A DNA stretch of 10,948 nucleotides from Armatimonadota bacterium (GCA_043814095.1 JBDRKI010000022.1:1-10948), one strand, 5' to 3'; positions 1 through 10,134 are shown, numbered from the stretch's first letter. The notes: generated from the letters alone by a model not told the origin. Numbers and translations are program-made.

Positions 1-461
1 CGAATAGTCACAGTTTTAATAGTGCCGGAAATTGCTCTGGAAAGGAATAATTTGAATCTACCAATATTTTTGATATATAGATATCTACCATCGAGTTTCC
101 ATCCTGCTTGTTTTAGAGTGAAAGAATCATATCTGTCTTTACCTTTAAAACGCGGAAACCCCGCCTTGCCGCTATTTTGTTTTAATCTCCGGAAAAAGGA
201 TTGAAATGCCCCCTCAAGGCGTTGAAGAACTTCCTGCAGTACCTGAGAACCGATAAGCTTAAACTCAGGAAAGACAACTTTGAGTTCTACAAGCTGTTTC
301 ATCTGTTCATATACAGAAATAGACTTTTTATGTTGATTATAGACAAGAATTCTCTGTTCAAGCGCGGCATTATACAGTATCCTGCACAGATCAAGCCATT
401 TTCTGCAATTATCTTCTGTGGCTTTATTAATTTTTACTCTATACAAAAAAGTCTTTTTCAT
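1..461 (-). CDS. tnpB: IS200/IS605-family TnpB (RNA-guided endonuclease), N-terminal part; continues beyond the left window edge
   Basis: Not in the ORF track. Manual translation from ATG at 461 is open to base 1: MKKTFLYRVKINKATEDNCRKWLDLCRILYNAALEQR...GSQVLQEVLQRLEGAFQSFFRRLKQNSGKAGFPRFKGKDRYDSFTLKQAGWKLDGRYLYIKNIGRFKLFLSRAISGTIKTVTI. It shows the typical TnpB motifs CRxLYNxAL, SQVLQ..L.RL..AF..FF and GFPRFK. The RuvC domain lies outside the window. Confidence 0.93.
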   Translation of the reverse strand, partial: MKKTFLYRVKINKATEDNCRKWLDLCRILYNAALEQRILVYNQHKKSISVYEQMKQLVELKVVFPEFKLIGSQVLQEVLQRLEGAFQSFFRRLKQNSGKAGFPRFKGKDRYDSFTLKQAGWKLDGRYLYIKNIGRFKLFLSRAISGTIKTVTI

Positions 462-760: not shown

Positions 761-1021
761 TTACAGAGTTCTGTAAACATCTTTTCTATGAGCAATTCGG
801 ATAATTAAAATAAAAAGTTCTTTATTGTTGAATGTGTATACGACTCTATAATCGCCAACGCGCCATTTCCAAATAACGCCTTCTTTTCCTTTAAGGGGAG
901 TGCCTATTTTTGGGTCCGCTAAAAGTTTATTTCTTATTTCCCTGATTATTTTTTTTGCCGTTTTTTGGCCTAGTTTCTTAAGATCTTTTTTAACAGTCTT
1001 TTTAAACTGAAGTTTATACAT
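761..1021 (-). CDS. relE: Type II toxin, RelE/ParE family mRNA interferase
   Basis: MYKLQFKKTVKKDLKKL...LLADPKIGTPLKG...WKWRVGDYRVVYTF...ILIIRIAHRKDVY, with the RelE motifs RVGDYRVVY and HRKDVY. The start is placed at ATG 1021, which overlaps the antitoxin stop (TAATG). The ORF track start at 1033 is an alternative. Confidence 0.92.
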   Translation of the reverse strand: MYKLQFKKTVKKDLKKLGQKTAKKIIREIRNKLLADPKIGTPLKGKEGVIWKWRVGDYRVVYTFNNKELFILIIRIAHRKDVYRTL

Positions 1022-1257
1022 TAAATATTCCATCCAAGTTCATTGATAAACTCTTTTTCGCTTAGTATTTTATCTTTAGGATCTTTTAGTCTTTCTACTG
1101 CAATATAATAATCCGCCCAGTTTTCAATGTATACTTCAAGGGCTTCCCTTATAATTTCTCCTAATTTTCTTTTTCTTTCGTCTGCTATCTCGCTTAATAT
1201 AGAAAAAACTTCTTTCGGCACACGAGTAGTTAAAATTTTATTTAAGTTTTCATGCAT
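1021..1257 (-). CDS. Type II antitoxin, ribbon-helix-helix (CopG/RelB-like)
   Basis: 78 aa. N-terminal RHH pattern (ILTTRVPKEVFSILSEIADERKRKLGEIIREALEVYIE) and a C-terminal tail typical of RelE partners (ADYYIAVERL...LSEKEFINELG). GGAGGAG RBS at 1264-1270. Translationally coupled to the toxin. Confidence 0.88.
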   Translation of the reverse strand: MHENLNKILTTRVPKEVFSILSEIADERKRKLGEIIREALEVYIENWADYYIAVERLKDPKDKILSEKEFINELGWNI

Positions 1258-1277
1258 AACATTCTCCTCCCACCCTA

Positions 1278-1306
1278 AGTATACATTGTATACAAATAAA
1301 TGTCAA
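1278..1306 (-). promoter_or_regulatory. Sigma70 promoter of the TA operon with overlapping palindromic operator
   Basis: Minus strand TTGACA (1306-1301), 17 bp, TATACT (1283-1278). The palindrome GTATACA-T-TGTATAC (1279-1293; two GTATAC boxes) covers the -10 and spacer, as expected for RHH autorepression. Confidence 0.8.
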
Positions 1307-1309
1307 TGC

Positions 1310-1885
1310 GTGAAGTTTGGACTAAAAATAATTAAAAATATCGATATAAAAGAACTGGCCGGTCTGGTTTGTCAGTATCTTATGGGTAATGGCATTGAAG
1401 CAGTACTGGCTGGAGGAGGATGTGTTTCTACTTATTCACGGAACAGGTATATTTCCGGAGATCTGGATTTTATAACATATTCGGCTATAAAAGAAATAGA
1501 ACCGGTTTTATATAAAATAGGTTTTATTAAAAAAAGCGGCCGTCATTTTGAACATCCGCAATGCGGGTTTTTTATAGAATTTCCGCCTCCGCCTATAGCC
1601 ATAGGAAATACCCTCATTGAATTGGTGATAAAAACCAGATACGGCATTTTAAAGCTTCTTACGGTTGAGGACTGCATAAAAGATCGCCTTGCCGCGTTTT
1701 ACTTTTGGAATGACCCTCAATCATTAGAACAGGCGGTTTTGATAACAAAAACATTTAAAAAAGAGATTGATTTTAATTCTATAGAGAAGTGGTCAAAACA
1801 AGAGGGTGAAGAAGAAAAATTCCGGAAGTTTTTAAAATTAACGGAAAAAAAGTCAAAAAGTTTACAATTTATAATGATAAAATAA
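1310..1885 (+). CDS. Nucleotidyltransferase-fold protein (GG...DLD motif; AbiEii/DUF6036-like)
   Basis: AVLAGGGCVSTYSRNRYISGDLDFIT matches the pol-beta-type NTase GG-x(n)-DxD motif, followed by IEFPPPP and EDCIKDRLAAFYFWND. The first 61 codons of the 1127 ORF are antisense to the antitoxin and its promoter, so the start is placed at GTG 1310. The start is uncertain and there is no clear RBS. Confidence 0.65.
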   Translation: MKFGLKIIKNIDIKELAGLVCQYLMGNGIEAVLAGGGCVSTYSRNRYISGDLDFITYSAIKEIEPVLYKIGFIKKSGRHFEHPQCGFFIEFPPPPIAIGNTLIELVIKTRYGILKLLTVEDCIKDRLAAFYFWNDPQSLEQAVLITKTFKKEIDFNSIEKWSKQEGEEEKFRKFLKLTEKKSKSLQFIMIK

Positions 1886-1927
1886 AAAGATGGGAAATTA
1901 AGTAAATCTAATCTCCCATCTTTTATT
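1885..1927. terminator. Bidirectional intrinsic terminator between convergent genes
   Basis: AAAAGATGGGA (1885-1895) ... TCCCATCTTTT (1914-1924) inverted repeat with an A-tract before and a T-tract after, between stops at 1885 (+) and 1932 (-). Confidence 0.75.
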
Positions 1928-1931
1928 GTTA

Positions 1932-3959
1932 TTAAGGCTGTACGGTTCTGTTTTTATAATACTCTTTTTCCTCATCGGTAAACCTGTCCATAGGAAGCAA
2001 AGAATATTCCTTGCGCATAAGAGTCCTTACAATTTTAGATCCGCATGAGCATTTACTCTGGCTTTTAGGTGATTTTCCGCACTTTAAGCATTCATAAATA
2101 GGGAAGGATACCATACCGAACCCTATATCGTTTTCGTACATAAGCTTTATTATGTTTTCAATTGTTTTAGATGAAGCCGGTTTTGATTTTAATATGATAT
2201 TTGTAAGGTGTCCGCCCGGACATAACTTATGGTAAGGGGCTTCTATTTTGATTTTTTCCTTTATTGAGACTTTACAGTCCGGCGGTATATGGAAGGAAGG
2301 GGTATACGCCTTATTTTTATGTATAAGGTCCTTTTCGCCGTACATATTTATATCTGCCTGGGCAAGTCTGAATATAGTGTCTTCCGAAGTTGTGGCGGAA
2401 AGTATAAAGTTTACGTTAGAACCTTCATTTAAGTTTTCCACAAGCTCTTTAAGTTTCTCAACTATTTTAAGCCCTGTTTCCTGAGCTTCTTTGCACTGGC
2501 CGTGATGTTTGCCGGTTAATAAAAGCAGGCATTCGGCAAGTCCCACGAAACCTATGGAGAGGTTCCCGTTTGAGAGCGCGTTTTTAATTCCGTCATCCCA
2601 TTTTAATTTTTCAGAACCTAAAAAGAGCTTATCTCCCATTATAAAGGGGAGCTCCATTACTTTTAAATTACTTATTAATTCAAAACGGTGCATAAGGATT
2701 GAAGAAGCTACTTTAACGGCTTTTTTGAGCTCTGAATAAATATTTTCCAGTTTGGGGTCTTTGCGTATATGCTTCATCTTTAATATTATATGGGGCAGGC
2801 TTATTGTCACATGCGCTATGTTCCCGACCCCGTAAGGGTTATCTTTACTGTATGTAATCCTGTCCCCGTTGCTCCAGTATACGACATTCTCGCAGGGTTT
2901 ATTAAAGCTCGCGTCCATAAAGCTGAAATACGGGTTAGACCTGCGGGATGCGACACCCGCGGCCAGCTTTAAAAGGCCGTGGTTTTTATCTTTAACGGCG
3001 TAGTTTGCGCCTTTTTTAACCCTGAATATTATATGGGGATAAAGGGGCGTTTCTTTATTGCCCAGTCCTTTATCTATAGCGCTTAAAATCGAAGTTGTAA
3101 TTAATTTGCCCTGTTTGGTTGTGTTTAAACCCAAGTTTACACAGCTGTGCGGGACCTGTGAACCCAGTCTTGTGTAAAGAGTGTTTAAGTTATATACAAA
3201 TCCTTCCATTGCCTGGGAGTAATCTTTTTCTTTATCTTTGTAGTTTTTGGAAAGATAGGCGAGGTCATCATCAAAGAATGAGAATGCCTGCGGTCCGTAA
3301 GAATCATTCTGGCTTGCCTGCAGGATTATAGCTGTTAAGGCCATTGCCGTTCCTATTCTTTTAGGGGAGCGGTGGAAGCCGTATCCCGAGAAGAAGCCGT
3401 CTTTTAAGAGCTTGGCAAGGCGTATTTCCATGGAATTAAAAGTTTTGGAATAGAAGTTTAGGTCATGAATGTTTAAAAGGCCTTCTTTATGAGCTTTTGA
3501 ATAACTTGCCGGTATAAGCCTGCTTAAGTAATAGTTTGTACTGGCAGTGGACGCTATCTTAAGCATTTTAGCGCTGGGTGAATTGTAAATATATGAATCG
3601 GTTGCGGGGGTCTGTTTCAGAATATCTTTAACCGTATCCATAAGAAGGGATTTCCCATCCCTTATATTATTTCTTTTTTCACGGTACAGGATATACGCTT
3701 TCGCGACTTGGGGATAGTTTTCCCTTATAAGGATGTTCTCAACGTAATCCTGTATCTCTTCAACCTGGGGGATATGCCCTTTCAGCGTCTTTGAGAGTTC
3801 TTCAACCACTCTTTCGGCTAAATCATCCGCAAGTTTAACATCATGTATGTTGCAGGCATGCAGTGCTTTTGTTATCGCACTGCTTATCTTTGAAAATTCA
3901 AACGGAGTCATCCTGCCGTCTCTTTTTCTTATTGCCGGAAATAATGTTTTCATCTGCAT
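1932..3959 (-). CDS. nrdD: Class III anaerobic ribonucleotide reductase (NrdD) homologue with N-terminal ATP-cone; catalytic residues apparently substituted
   Basis: ATP-cone (IRKRDGRMTPFEFSKISSAITKA...VEEIQDYVENIL...VAKAYILYREKR). NrdD core motifs IHDL.FY, SQND..G.Q, QAMEGFVYNLNT, ETPLYPHIIFRVKKG.N, LSIGFVGLAECL, SFHIP, KIKIEAPYH.LCPGGH. C-terminal CxxC...CxC Zn ribbon. Start placed at ATG 3959 (MQMKTL) after an AAGGGGG RBS; 675 aa. Confidence 0.9.
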   Translation of the reverse strand: MQMKTLFPAIRKRDGRMTPFEFSKISSAITKALHACNIHDVKLADDLAERVVEELSKTLKGHIPQVEEIQDYVENILIRENYPQVAKAYILYREKRNNIRDGKSLLMDTVKDILKQTPATDSYIYNSPSAKMLKIASTASTNYYLSRLIPASYSKAHKEGLLNIHDLNFYSKTFNSMEIRLAKLLKDGFFSGYGFHRSPKRIGTAMALTAIILQASQNDSYGPQAFSFFDDDLAYLSKNYKDKEKDYSQAMEGFVYNLNTLYTRLGSQVPHSCVNLGLNTTKQGKLITTSILSAIDKGLGNKETPLYPHIIFRVKKGANYAVKDKNHGLLKLAAGVASRRSNPYFSFMDASFNKPCENVVYWSNGDRITYSKDNPYGVGNIAHVTISLPHIILKMKHIRKDPKLENIYSELKKAVKVASSILMHRFELISNLKVMELPFIMGDKLFLGSEKLKWDDGIKNALSNGNLSIGFVGLAECLLLLTGKHHGQCKEAQETGLKIVEKLKELVENLNEGSNVNFILSATTSEDTIFRLAQADINMYGEKDLIHKNKAYTPSFHIPPDCKVSIKEKIKIEAPYHKLCPGGHLTNIILKSKPASSKTIENIIKLMYENDIGFGMVSFPIYECLKCGKSPKSQSKCSCGSKIVRTLMRKEYSLLPMDRFTDEEKEYYKNRTVQP

Positions 3960-4075
3960 AATAAAAAACCCCCTTATGATATATATGAGGCGGCAGCTTA
4001 AAAAGCCGTCTTTCTGCCACATGGTAAAGGTTACGCTAACCGAGGACATATTCCTTCTTTGTGAAAAAAGTATAT

Positions 4076-7777: not shown

Positions 7778-7961
7778 CAATTATTTATATATAAAATACA
7801 GGAATATAGAAAGCATTTCTGTGTTTTTTTTATGTAAAAAAGGATGTTTATGTCCTTTGTAGAAAACTTAAAAAGTTCCTTTCTATATTTTAACTGATTT
7901 CGGCATATAAACAAGGAATTTCGGGTTTAAATGTGAAAAAATTCACTTTAAGGTGATAGTT

Positions 7962-8807
7962 ATGAGAAAAATCGAAAGCAGCAAGATAACACAAACCGTC
8001 AAAGACATGTTTCTTGAGGTAAGCTTTAATCTTCCCGGTGATGTGCTTGATAAAATCAAGGAAGCGGCAGGTAAGGAAGAATCCGAGCTTGGCCGCGAAG
8101 TACTTGATATTCTGGTTGAGAATGCTAAGATAAGCACAGAATGCCGTATCCCGTTATGCCAGGACTGCGGTTTTGCCGTTATTTATGTAAAAATAGGCGA
8201 TAAGGTTGAAATTACCGGAGAGAATATAAATAAAGCGGTTTCCGAAGGTGTCAAACAGGCGTATGAAGAAGGATATTTAAGAAAATCCATAGTTTATGAC
8301 CCTGTGTATGAAAGAAAGAACACGAAAGACAACACCCCTCCCTTAATTAATATTGAGATCATAGAAGGGGAAAATATAGAGATATATGTTTTGCCCAAAG
8401 GCGGCGGAAGCGAAAATATGTCCGCGTTAAGAATGTTAAAGCCCGCCCAGGGCGAGAACGGCATAGTAGATTTTGTTTCGGAGGTTGTTAAATCTGCCGG
8501 TTCTAATCCCTGTCCTCCCGTTATTGTGGGAGTCGGTATAGGCGGTACCTCAGATAAAGCCATGTCTCTGGCAAAAAAAGCGCTGTTAAGGCCGCTTGGC
8601 GCGCCAAGCAAAGAAGAAAAATTCGCCAGGTTGGAAGCCAAACTGCTTGAGAAAATAAATAATCTGGGAATAGGGCCTCAGGGATTCGGTGGCAGGACAA
8701 CCGCTCTTGCCGTGCACATAGAAATCTTCCCGTGCCATATAGCAAGCATGCCGGTAGGCGTTAATATTCAATGTCACAGCGCAAGGTGGAAAAAAGAAAT
8801 TATTTAA
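7962..8807 (+). CDS. Class I Fe-S fumarate hydratase (tartrate dehydratase family), alpha subunit
   Basis: PLCQDCG, GYLRKSIV.DP, KNTKDNTP, PKGGGSENMS, NPCPPVIVGVGIGGT, GIGPQGFGG.TT, PCHIASMPVGVNIQCHS. Start ATG 7962 after an AAGGTGA RBS. Confidence 0.93.
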   Translation: MRKIESSKITQTVKDMFLEVSFNLPGDVLDKIKEAAGKEESELGREVLDILVENAKISTECRIPLCQDCGFAVIYVKIGDKVEITGENINKAVSEGVKQAYEEGYLRKSIVYDPVYERKNTKDNTPPLINIEIIEGENIEIYVLPKGGGSENMSALRMLKPAQGENGIVDFVSEVVKSAGSNPCPPVIVGVGIGGTSDKAMSLAKKALLRPLGAPSKEEKFARLEAKLLEKINNLGIGPQGFGGRTTALAVHIEIFPCHIASMPVGVNIQCHSARWKKEII

Positions 8808-8826
8808 TCCGTGAGAATTAATTCTG

Positions 8827-9579
8827 ATGAAAATAATTGATTTAACAAAAAAAAATATAGACAGTATACCCAGGGCGTGCGGCAGTCTTCTGCCTTCGCG
8901 CGAGAGAGAAGCCGCAAGAGAAGTGAAAAAAGAATGGGTCAGGTCTTTATTAAGCAAGGGCTTTAAGATGAAGCTCGCCGTTGACGATGACGGCTATTTT
9001 ATGGGGATGATAGAATATCTGCCCATAGATGTAAGTTTGCAGAGAGTTACGGGAAAAAATATTGCGTATATTGACTGTATATGGGTTTTGAACCAGCATC
9101 AGAAAAAAGGCGTAGGCAGGGCATTAATGGAAGCGGCGTTTTCGGATACTAAAAAATTTGACGGGGTCGCAACATGGGCTACTGACCAGGTAATTATGAA
9201 TAAGGGTTTTTTTGAAGCTTTTGGTTTTGAGGTTGTTGATTCGGATAAAACGGTTCATGTGATGTTTAAAAAGAATAAAAAAGACGCAGAGCCGCCGAAA
9301 TTATTAAAATCTAAATTTAAGTTTGAACCGGATAAAGGCGTGCTGAATGTGGACCTGTTCTATAATCCCTGGTGCCCTTATAGTTTCGGAGTGGCACAGA
9401 AGGCTAAAAAGATGGTTTTAGATTCCAAAGAAAGAGTCAGGATAAAAGAGCATTACCTTAGTTCAAAAGAGATAATAGAAAAATACGGTCTTTCCGTTGG
9501 TGTTTTTTTAAACGGCAAGGATTTTACGGTTGATTTTTTAATGAGCAAATCTTTAGAAGAAGTTTTGATTTTGATTTAA
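8827..9579 (+). CDS. GNAT acetyltransferase with C-terminal thioredoxin-like (YoaP-like) domain
   Basis: GMIEYLP, YIDCIWV and acetyl-CoA motif A HQKKGVGRALM, then FFEAFGFEVVD. C-terminal FYNPWCPYS...GVFLNGK. Confidence 0.8.
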   Translation: MKIIDLTKKNIDSIPRACGSLLPSREREAAREVKKEWVRSLLSKGFKMKLAVDDDGYFMGMIEYLPIDVSLQRVTGKNIAYIDCIWVLNQHQKKGVGRALMEAAFSDTKKFDGVATWATDQVIMNKGFFEAFGFEVVDSDKTVHVMFKKNKKDAEPPKLLKSKFKFEPDKGVLNVDLFYNPWCPYSFGVAQKAKKMVLDSKERVRIKEHYLSSKEIIEKYGLSVGVFLNGKDFTVDFLMSKSLEEVLILI

Positions 9580-9588
9580 GAGGCTATT

Positions 9589-10134
9589 ATGAAAATAAAG
9601 TTACCGTTGACGGATGAGATTGTTAAACAGTTGAGGCCCGGGATGAAAGTTTCTCTTTACGGTGAGATTTATGTGGCAAGGGATTCGGCACATAAAAGGA
9701 TTGTAGAAGCGCTTGATAAGGGAGAGATTCCTCCTCTTGAGGTAAAAGGCGCAACTATTTATTATATGGGGCCTTCTCCCGCTAAACCGGGCGCAGTTAT
9801 AGGGGCTTGCGGCCCCACGACAAGCGGGAGGATGGATCAGTATACCCCTAAATTACTGGAACTCGGACTGAAAGGCATGATAGGCAAAGGCCTGCGTTCA
9901 AAACAGGTTAAGGATTCTATTGTAAAGAATAAAGCTGTATATTTCTCCGCGATAGGGGGAGCGGGATCTTTTTACGCCGACAAGGTTAAAAAAGCCGAGG
10001 TTGTCGCGTATGAAGACCTGGGCGCGGAAGCTTTAAGGAAGCTGGAAGTAGAGGATTTTCCCGTAGTGGTTGTTAATGATATGTACGGCGGGGATCTTTA
10101 TGAAGACGGGGTAAGGAAATACAGTAAAGATTAA
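9589..10134 (+). CDS. Class I Fe-S fumarate hydratase (tartrate dehydratase family), beta subunit
   Basis: ARDSAHKR, IYYMGPSPAKPG.VIGACGPTTSGRMD, MIGKG, YEDLGAEAL..LEVEDFP...ND..GGDLY. GAGG RBS. Confidence 0.93.
   Translation: MKIKLPLTDEIVKQLRPGMKVSLYGEIYVARDSAHKRIVEALDKGEIPPLEVKGATIYYMGPSPAKPGAVIGACGPTTSGRMDQYTPKLLELGLKGMIGKGLRSKQVKDSIVKNKAVYFSAIGGAGSFYADKVKKAEVVAYEDLGAEALRKLEVEDFPVVVVNDMYGGDLYEDGVRKYSKD

Follow-up and report, generated by a model that had tools for sequence, protein, structure and literature searches.

Among the solved class III ribonucleotide reductases (RNRs), the Prevotella copri enzyme (PcNrdD; 8p23) is the closest by sequence (1.8e-87) to the protein described here, and the statements made on it below are drawn from PMC11226230. 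In PcNrdD, Cys416 is the thiyl-radical cysteine and Cys171, on the first barrel strand, is the second active-site cysteine; the NxN substrate flap is among the most conserved NrdD motifs, and both of its asparagines hydrogen-bond the substrate. The ATP-cone of this enzyme harbours an activity site (a-site) for two nucleotides, contacted by K7, R8, Y83, R87 and R91, and in active class III enzymes the binding of ATP or dATP at the cone alters the cone conformation and the oligomeric state (PMC11226230). The cone of canonical NrdD works via positioning of the substrate flap (PMC12662201). In this study we analysed a 10,948-bp stretch of DNA from an Armatimonadota bacterium (GCA_043814095.1, JBDRKI010000022.1:1-10948; hereafter the window), which encodes at positions 1932-3959 of the minus strand a 675-amino acid (aa) NrdD homologue, designated P0001. 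We demonstrate that P0001 has lost the radical residues and the substrate flap of NrdD and that it belongs to an old clade in which the allosteric elements are the best-conserved parts. P0001 is very probably a non-reducing NrdD derivative maintained by selection.

Residue positions are given in P0001 numbering unless PcNrdD is stated. P0001-like NrdD homologues that share its catalytic losses are referred to as the dead type or dead clade, and relatives retaining both catalytic cysteines and the glycyl-radical glycine (C/C/G) as canonical. The genome from which the window originates is G000.

Loss of catalytic and substrate-binding elements in an NrdD scaffold

The architecture of P0001 is complete for an NrdD and comprises the ATP-cone, a linker, the ten-stranded barrel, a Zn ribbon and the C-terminal loop. 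The Pfam NRDD domain (PF13597) was detected at residues 125-642 (2.1e-119) and the ATP-cone (PF03477) at residues 10-97 (6.7e-24). The protein passed the cut-off of the NCBIfam equivalog TIGR02487 (344.7 versus 326.35 bits), and the best NCBIfam model was PRK07111 (633.7 bits, under its cut-off of 764). An AlphaFold2 model built from 124 sequences had a mean predicted local distance difference test score (pLDDT) of 86.3 and a predicted template modelling score (pTM) of 0.80, with low confidence only in residues 1-4, 116-123 (the former flap) and 263-268. The modelled fold matched those of the P. copri and T4 enzymes: the Foldseek template modelling (TM) scores were 0.79/0.81 to P. copri NrdD 8p2s_B and up to 0.84 (target-normalised) to T4 NrdD 1hk8, and 0.67/0.70 to Thermotoga maritima NrdD. 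The structural Zn ribbon, i.e., four cysteines preceding the position of the glycyl loop, is present in P0001 and gone in one subclade of the dead type.

To compare the catalytic positions, P0001 and the 120 best matches of a search against 5.8 billion proteins were aligned with MAFFT. The catalytic columns read C/C/G in 102 of the 121 sequences, and the other 19, including P0001, deviated in at least one of them. The first cysteine was gone in all 19 deviating sequences; one of these kept the finger-loop cysteine and one the glycine. An earlier note on this DNA, made from the sequence alone, had placed Ser at 3432-3434, Asn at 2868-2870 and Tyr at 2004-2006 of the minus strand at the three catalytic positions, and all three coordinates agree with the alignment, in which P0001 has neither a Cys nor the Gly at the catalytic positions. 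They correspond to Ser176, which is shared by 19 of the 22 clade members (PcNrdD counterpart Cys171), to Asn364 (PcNrdD counterpart Cys416) and to Tyr652, respectively. In the HMMER pairwise alignment to P. copri NrdD the finger loop was shifted by two residues, so that Asp366 faced the cysteine; the loop has no cysteine in either alignment. Around Tyr652 the sequence RRITGYLS of the canonical relatives has become MRKEYSLL, and the translation of P0001 contains no glycine C-terminal to the CGS of the Zn ribbon, as the note had also claimed.

The motif drifts described previously are likewise present (HGGQ to YGPQ, INLP to ISLP and YTNS to YTPS). Moreover, the NxN flap is lost, in addition to the three losses given in the earlier note. 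The HxHD triphosphate-binding motif reads NIHD in P0001, lacking the first histidine, whereas it is HIHD in most other clade members, and most of those outside the subclade of P0001 retain it.

We then compared the 22 members of the dead clade with the 102 canonical relatives, regarding positions as canonical-conserved when at least 95% of the canonical sequences agreed and as lost when kept in no more than 25% of the clade. Of these near-invariant canonical positions the dead clade has kept 158 and lost 57. Among those lost are R119, N121, A122 and N123 of the flap, C176, M362, C364 and R365 of the finger loop, T523, P524 and G527 of the ATPAE triphosphate loop, N554, and the glycyl loop from I650 to T656. 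The asparagine equivalent to Asn435 of PcNrdD is variable across the clade. The losses thus concentrate in the catalytic and substrate-binding elements: the NxN flap, both cysteines, the finger loop, the triphosphate loop and the glycyl loop. Because five defining features of an active NrdD, namely the glycine, the two cysteines, the flap and the activase (see below), are all absent together, radical chemistry is excluded for P0001 at the level of the sequence.

Retained nucleotide sites and selection on the dead clade

The residues of the allosteric sites were mapped by HMMER alignment to PcNrdD (chain numbering equals paper numbering + 4), using the contacts given in PMC11226230. The ATP-cone contacts K12, R13, Y92, R96 and R100, equivalent to K7, R8, Y83, R87 and R91 of PcNrdD, are all invariant in the alignment of the 22 clade members. 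Equally invariant in the clade is N257, the counterpart of the specificity read-out residue Asn298, and R264 and Q268, which correspond to Arg305 and Gln309 of PcNrdD loop 2, are conserved. When identity was calculated by region (Table 1), the finger loop, the flap and the triphosphate loop exceeded the average among the canonical relatives, whereas in the dead clade the finger and triphosphate loops, like the Zn ribbon and Gly domain, fell below the clade's own average. The allosteric elements are the best-conserved parts of the dead clade, the ATP-cone being its most conserved domain, and relaxation is confined to the catalytic and substrate-binding elements.

The clade has also acquired residues of its own. 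Twelve positions (L17, Q65, E80, K134, R147, Y153, S176, Y262, T304, G365, E436 and G582) show the same residue in at least 85% of the clade, one that differs from at least 90% of the canonical relatives, and four of them (R147, Y262, T304 and G582) do not vary within the clade. Seven of the twelve are predicted from the secondary-structure map and the description of PcNrdD to lie in the cone or in the helices flanking the specificity site (s-site) rather than in the former active site.

The phylogeny was inferred by quick maximum-likelihood searches under LG+G4, which gave composition warnings and in which support was assessed solely by the Shimodaira-Hasegawa-like approximate likelihood ratio test (SH-aLRT). 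The 25 dead-type rows of a 68-row tree formed one clade with an SH-aLRT value of 100, nested inside the canonical ATP-cone NrdDs, and the same clade was recovered in a 65-row tree with 11 dead-type rows. A profile of the 22 clade members placed three dead-type sequences on top (971-1009 bits) when run against 1.84 billion cluster representatives, the next match having 832 bits. Against 90%-identity clusters the top 27 matches were all dead-type, and 28 dead-type clusters, of 1-7 members each, were found among the 120 matches listed. These results indicate that the dead-type family is real but rare, amounting to about 30 sequence clusters from several sources. The public labels of the member proteins refer to metagenome-assembled genomes (MAGs) of Armatimonadetes, Chloroflexi, Eremiobacteraeota and Vulcanimicrobiota. 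A clade-alignment search of genome contigs listed 80 loci, labelled mostly as Bacillota, Clostridia and archaeal MAGs, none of which was more than 45% identical to P0001 and none of which was a carrier contig, and the search of the ESM Atlas returned ordinary NrdD clusters only.

Within the source phylum, nine further genomes carry homologues with 42-49% identity to P0001. In every one of them the first cysteine is replaced by Ser or Thr, and eight lack the finger-loop cysteine. Four of the nine, together with P0097 and P0281 to P0287, make up a subclade that keeps the glycine (RRAAGLLLP), with both catalytic cysteines and the Zn-ribbon cysteines gone. In total, the dead type (at least 971 bits) was found in 10 of the 401 sampled genomes of the phylum, which belong to 9 of the 21 sampled families, and it was absent from the 297 genomes of the best-sampled family.

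The gene is an intact open reading frame (ORF) in each of the ten genomes, and about 100 columns are invariant over the 22 members at 40-75% identity. For eight genes (28 pairs) the proportion of nonsynonymous differences (pN) was 0.22-0.43 and that of synonymous differences (pS) 0.72-0.89, i.e., saturated. The ratio of nonsynonymous to synonymous substitution rates (dN/dS) was computable in two pairs only (0.14 and 0.17), with synonymous saturation in 26 of the 28. Thus, the clade of P0001 is old, monophyletic and under purifying selection. As the same losses define a monophyletic clade, the reading frames are intact and pN is far below pS, P0001 is to be regarded as a pseudoenzyme rather than a gene in decay. 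This is in line with the earlier note, which had preferred a repurposed pseudoenzyme to random decay and had proposed testing whether homologues with the same losses form a clade under purifying selection; the limitation of the relaxation to catalytic and substrate-binding elements points in the same direction.

Genome setting and possible functions of P0001

P0001 is the sole NRDD match in G000, the completeness of which is 98.97%. The only class I/II RNR of this genome is a 1240-aa B12-dependent class II enzyme, NrdJ (C55:56398-60120, minus strand; L002 334-4056), which scored 1111 bits with NF006417 (cut-off 961) and lacks an ATP-cone; its intein-like insert spans about residues 300-715, where it matches intein-containing models. 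An NrdR is encoded on contig C32 (TIGR00244, 202 bits). No NrdG activase reached the curated cut-offs in G000: the best scores were 56.6 bits with TIGR02495 (cut-off 131.15) and 23.4 bits with TIGR02491 (cut-off 126.1), the best candidate being QueE-like, and there is no nrdG in the window, as noted earlier. Judging from this gene content, the synthesis of deoxyribonucleoside triphosphates (dNTPs) in G000 falls to the intein-containing NrdJ, accompanied by NrdR, and the genome has neither an activase nor an active NrdD. Upstream of nrdJ (L002 4240-4185), two NrdR-box-like palindromes, ACACAACATATAGTGC and CCACTATATGTAGTTG, are spaced by about 40 bp; they were identified by visual comparison with the NrdR-box consensus. 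We also considered whether the P0001 gene belongs to the NrdR regulon, and this was rejected: a pattern adapted from these boxes gave 4 matches in the window versus 3.08 expected, none of them upstream of the gene.

A second NRDD-family gene is absent from seven of the ten carriers (G000, G001, G003, G006, G007, G010 and G034), five of which are at least 97% complete. In all seven the NrdG2 model (TIGR02495, cut-off 131) gave at most 63 bits, and no score with the NrdG model (TIGR02491, cut-off 126) exceeded 29 bits in the five genomes searched with it (G000, G003, G007, G010 and G034; G001 and G006 were left out). The positive controls for NrdG2, located beside canonical NrdD, scored 196-212 bits, and the TIGR02491 control in G012 scored 169.9 bits. 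The remaining three carriers (G013, G019 and G025) additionally hold a distant, CC-type canonical NrdD with the motifs NxN, HIHD, MCCR and VMGY and with NrdG2 adjacent. The earlier note had proposed checking whether each carrier encodes a separate intact nrdD/nrdG, and only these three do. A class I/II RNR match and an NrdR-size ATP-cone frame occur in all ten carriers; the latter contains one in-frame TAG in G003 (C92:19208-19468). The idea that NrdJ is cone-less only where the P0001 type is present was rejected, as cones occurred only in NrdD-type and NrdR-size frames of 41 relatives.

With radical chemistry gone and the nucleotide sites kept, P0001 would still bind ATP or dATP through the cone, and dNTP effectors through the specificity site of the dimer interface. 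Such binding is predicted from the retention of the a-site, s-site and loop-2 residues, which lie in the best-conserved regions. Nucleotide binding may in turn bring about repositioning of the cone or oligomerisation, as in active NrdDs, and this switch could serve an output other than the gating of the protein's own substrate flap, making P0001 a sensor or regulator of the (d)NTP pool. That nucleotide sensing by means of the allosteric sites is the actual job of P0001 is a plausible proposal, to which we give a little less than an even chance. The reading as a whole, according to which a catalytically dead class III RNR paralogue has been kept by selection as a nucleotide-binding protein, we consider evenly poised between right and wrong. 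From among the functions suggested by the earlier note, the (d)NTP sensor fits the pattern of conservation, with the binding itself predicted from the retained residues; the other suggestions fared less well (see below).

Several observations weigh against the sensor proposal. The cone of canonical NrdD acts through the flap, and since the flap motif is gone, this output route does not exist in P0001. The ATP-cone was never located at a class I/II RNR locus in the 41 relatives, with or without the P0001 type, so there is no correlation suggesting that the cone is supplied to NrdJ in trans. A search of the window for NrdR boxes, with as many as 3 mismatches allowed, gave 0 matches; the consensus was partly derived from the nrdJ pair. 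No neighbour was shared across the window and eight carrier loci (131 ORFs, Pfam annotation). In P0001 and its own subclade, moreover, NIHD, GPQ and ISLP have drifted within otherwise kept motifs, and the clade-specific residues could equally mark a new ligand-binding or catalytic site. Finally, a 155-nt contig identical to window positions 2391-2545 was found in one coded groundwater metatranscriptome run, which is no proof of transcription.

The strongest rival explanation follows from the last but one of these points: the remodelled barrel (S176, G365, E436, G582, Y262, K134, R147 and Y153) may form a new, non-radical site of a neo-functionalised enzyme or ligand binder that the cone and the s-site regulate. 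The twelve clade-specific positions, four of them invariant, would be explained in this way, as would the barrel core, which keeps 158 canonical positions and has a confidently modelled fold, and the HIHD motif kept in most members outside the P0001 subclade. However, seven of the twelve positions are predicted to lie in the cone or the helices of the specificity site, the elements of the former active site are the least conserved, which is the opposite of the pattern for a new catalytic centre, and no metabolic gene neighbourhood was found in the nine loci. We therefore regard a new site as unlikely. A non-catalytic or moonlighting function of some other kind, with no relation to nucleotide sensing (a scaffold, for example), is improbable. 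Tyrosine autophosphorylation and transphosphorylation have been reported for Escherichia coli NrdD (PMC11140677), but that report concerns an active NrdD, and a kinase-like or scaffolding role would leave the superior conservation of the a-site and s-site unexplained.

It is still less probable that P0001 is a partner, regulator or decoy of a canonical class III enzyme, acting by forming a heterodimer with an active NrdD or by titrating NrdG. Three carriers do encode a canonical NrdD with adjacent NrdG2, and RR..L.P is kept in the C-terminal loop, which active enzymes present to NrdG; yet the co-resident NrdDs are of the distant CC-type subclass, and this explanation is unsupported because in seven of the ten carriers the dead-type gene is the only member of the NRDD family and NrdG2 stays below the cut-off. 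With regard to the further suggestion of a decoy for phage inhibitors, nothing in the nine genomic contexts hints at phage defence. That P0001 is an RNR after all, using unconventional chemistry or a radical supplied in trans, is scarcely credible. It passes the TIGR02487 cut-off, public sources name it an anaerobic RNR and one subclade retains a glycine at the radical position, but the glycine, the finger-loop cysteine and the cysteine of the first barrel strand are jointly absent, the Asn435 equivalent is variable, degradation extends to the NxN flap and the triphosphate loop, and G000 has no activase; the glycine-keeping subclade itself is without both cysteines and the Zn-ribbon cysteines. 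As to a decaying relic, i.e., a still-open pseudogene, or an assembly or sequencing artefact, the short contig of 10,948 bp with its TnpB fragment and ParE toxin gene and the extra drift in the P0001 subclade (NIHD, GPQ, ISLP) could raise such a suspicion. Nevertheless, about 30 independent 90%-identity clusters share the state, ten genomes have intact ORFs, pS is saturated with pN far lower, about 100 columns do not vary among the 22 members, and identical short contigs occur in two DNA runs, so that we give this explanation hardly any weight.

The locus, related lineages and known systems

The features of the gene and its surroundings are collected in Table 1. The reading frame of P0001 comprises 675 codons without an internal stop. 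The longest mechanical ORF would encode 705 aa from an ATG at 4049; the homologues, however, all start at the position of 3959, and this start was adopted because the homologue alignment begins there and a Shine-Dalgarno sequence directly precedes it. The ribosome-binding site and the terminator proposed earlier are thus both in place. The G+C content of the gene (0.402) is close to that of the genome (0.393). Short identical contigs were also found in two coded DNA runs; the run shares in this search, which covered the metatranscriptome run as well, were small (0.06 to 0.15).

Table 1. Features of the P0001 gene and its neighbourhood in the window, and identity by region within the dead clade and the canonical relatives.
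Feature	Position	Strand	Remarks
Radical-less NrdD paralogue gene (P0001)	1932..3959	-	Open frame; Pfam NRDD and ATP-cone; start from homologue alignment and Shine-Dalgarno sequence
Shine-Dalgarno sequence AAGGGGG	3969..3975	-	9 nt 5' of ATG 3959; read from sequence
ATP-cone, residues 10-97	3669..3932	-	Pfam 6.7e-24 and genome scan
Former NxN substrate flap, now D121-S122-Y123	3591..3599	-	N-A-N in 102/102 canonical relatives; variable in the clade
Ser176 at the position of the first active-site Cys (PcNrdD Cys171)	3432..3434	-	Canonical TLNCLQI to TFNSMEI
Specificity-site helix end and loop 2, residues 249-270	3150..3215	-	Q249, N257, R264, Q268 kept; Tyr262 for His, clade-specific
Finger loop YWSNGDR, residues 361-367	2859..2879	-	Canonical YMGCR[ST]R; Asn364 at the position of the thiyl-radical Cys (codon 2868-2870), Gly365 for Arg
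Zn ribbon, C624, C627, C637, C639	2043..2090	-	Second pair CxC, not CxxC; MAFFT and clade alignment
Former glycyl-radical loop MRKEYSLLPMDRF	1980..2018	-	Tyr652 at the Gly position (codon 2004-2006)
Intrinsic-terminator-like hairpin, 17-bp stem, then T-run	1885..1924	-	Just past the stop; consensus scan only
TnpB fragment	3-461	-	IS200/IS605-type OrfB/TnpB; HTH_OrfB_IS605 1.7e-07
ParE-family toxin gene	761-1033	-	Pfam 8.7e-13
78-aa ORF	1021-1257	-	No Pfam match; probably antitoxin
252-aa ORF	1127-1885	+	No Pfam match
M48 peptidase gene, 441 aa	4076-5401	-	Pfam 3.8e-29
Class I fumarate hydratase, alpha	7953-8807	+	
GNAT acetyltransferase, 250 aa	8827-9579		
Class I fumarate hydratase, beta	9589-10134	+	
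Regional identity, overall			Dead clade 0.50; canonical relatives 0.74
Regional identity, ATP-cone			Dead clade 0.57; canonical relatives 0.71
Regional identity, first core helix			Dead clade 0.70; canonical relatives 0.81
Regional identity, s-site hairpin			Dead clade 0.63; canonical relatives 0.84
Regional identity, loop-2 region			Dead clade 0.66; canonical relatives 0.93
Regional identity, finger loop			Dead clade 0.38; canonical relatives 0.81
Regional identity, triphosphate loop			Dead clade 0.41; canonical relatives 0.83
Regional identity, Zn ribbon and Gly domain			Dead clade 0.34; canonical relatives 0.75

Directly upstream of the P0001 gene, on the same strand and at a distance of 116 bp, lies the gene for the M48 peptidase, which has a hydrophobic N-terminal leader and a C-terminal extension of about 200 aa without a Pfam match; this neighbour is absent from the other carrier loci. 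Downstream of the P0001 gene there is a ParE-family toxin gene, overlapped and preceded by the 78-aa ORF, which probably encodes the antitoxin. The 252-aa ORF, encoded on the other strand, overlaps with the putative antitoxin ORF and stops immediately before the terminator of the P0001 gene. The TnpB fragment corresponds to the N-terminal part of the protein and runs off the contig end. Within 7953-10134 of the plus strand, the two fumarate hydratase genes are separated by the acetyltransferase gene. Neither nrdG nor another activase gene was present near the P0001 gene in the window or near its homologues in the eight carrier loci (131 ORFs, Pfam).

Loss of the catalytic residues extends beyond the clade of P0001. 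Among the 150 best 50%-identity representatives, 26 are without the first cysteine; of these 26, the KRDGR cone motif is exact in 23, the finger-loop cysteine is missing from 24 and the glycine from 20. The degenerate rows sit in at least two separate places of the 65-row tree, the number of origins being provisional. One place is a 20-row group (support 87) that contains the P0001 clade, its sister group, P0133 and a three-member group (P0136, P0214 and P0257). The other is a second lineage, with ten rows in a clade beside P0134 (support 96) and a further four joining P0150 (support 99), both P0134 and P0150 being canonical. Its members (P0188, P0198, P0204, P0207, P0222, P0237, P0254, P0210, P0227 and others) have the ATP-cone and the NrdD domain with both cysteines absent, and many of them are without the whole Zn-ribbon and Gly domain, which suggests an independent loss of catalysis.

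The sister group of the P0001 clade (P0127, P0144, P0153, P0182 and P0199; SH-aLRT 87-90) includes two proteins labelled Stenomitos sp. and Sericytochromatia/Tanganyikabacteria. It shares with the dead clade the kept ATP-cone, the replacement of the first cysteine by Ser or Thr and the loss of the NxN flap. In contrast to P0001, four of its five members keep the glycine (in an RR..GY/W context) and two have a finger-loop cysteine shifted by one position (LSGCAR), so this group may represent an intermediate, or an alternative state or chemistry. One of the degenerate sequences, the 904-aa P0224 with an Acholeplasmataceae label, is an NrdD-NrdG fusion (NRDD plus Fer4_12/Radical_SAM). Its NrdD part has Thr, Ser and Asp at the positions of the two cysteines and the glycine, respectively, so that an activase domain is fused to an apparently dead reductase.

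The repurposing of NrdD may recur, since 26 of the 150 representatives lack the first cysteine, the KRDGR-type cone is kept and the degenerate sequences occupy at least two places in the tree. It is conceivable, though we would rather doubt than assert it, that degenerate ATP-cone NrdDs constitute an unrecognised class of bacterial nucleotide-pool sensors that has evolved from active class III RNRs on at least two occasions, the cone switch and the specificity site having been rewired away from ribonucleotide reduction; the P0001 clade would then be one lineage of this class, long kept in minor lineages, all of one phylum, that rely on a cone-less NrdJ for their dNTPs. For RNR biology, P0001 would offer a natural separation of the allosteric machinery, i.e., the ATP-cone and the specificity site, from catalysis, which could be useful for the current question of what the class III cone controls (PMC11226230; PMC12662201). 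The findings also bear on annotation: because P0001 passes the NrdD equivalog cut-off and public sources name it an anaerobic RNR, metabolic reconstructions would credit the carriers with a capacity for anaerobic dNTP synthesis that is almost certainly absent from them. They should therefore be of interest to RNR specialists and be relevant for annotation.

Our literature check, which included term searches in the eLife RNR phylogeny, a 2026 review of glycyl-radical enzymes and a 2010 paper on horizontal transfer, and which lay outside subscription journals and RNRdb, found no paper analysing NrdD homologues devoid of the radical residues. The only related entry was a table row for Chloracidobacterium, 'NrdD-like paralog (no NrdG)' (PMC12816986, Table 1). 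Like P0001, this paralog is an orphan NrdD-like gene without an activase in a host relying on other RNR classes; it comes from a different phylum, the consulted part of the paper contains neither a residue analysis nor a function, and the likeness is based on the table row (PMC12816986).

P. copri NrdD (8p23/8p2s), the best solved relative in both sequence and fold, shares with P0001 the conserved cone contacts, Asn298 and loop 2 (PMC11226230). It differs in that the counterparts of its Cys171, Cys416, Gly711, Tyr712 and Asn114/Asn116 are all replaced in P0001, and in that its cone acts by ordering flap and Gly domain over the substrate, for which P0001 has no counterpart (PMC11226230; PMC12662201). 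The cone of Streptomyces coelicolor NrdR is listed as a structural neighbour (PMC11226230, Table 4). The canonical ATP-cone NrdDs of the formate type (PRK07111/TIGR02487 type; the nearest have Bacillota, Clostridia and Dethiobacter labels) are 43-46% identical to P0001 over the full length, and the dead clade is nested within them. They have the domain order, the ATP-cone, the s-site, the loop-2 residues and the 158 near-invariant positions in common with it, whereas P0001 lacks Cys176, Cys364, Gly652, the NxN flap, Arg365 and the ATPAE loop and has no NrdG nearby or in the genome.

A use of these domains purely for the sensing of ATP and dATP, and not for catalysis, is represented by NrdR, the repressor of RNR genes, which consists of an ATP-cone and a Zn ribbon. 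NrdR is the closest functional counterpart of P0001; both couple an ATP-cone to a Zn ribbon. The two nevertheless differ in build: NrdR is a protein of about 150 aa with an N-terminal DNA-binding ribbon, whereas P0001 keeps the 500-aa barrel, and part of its clade is without the ribbon cysteines.

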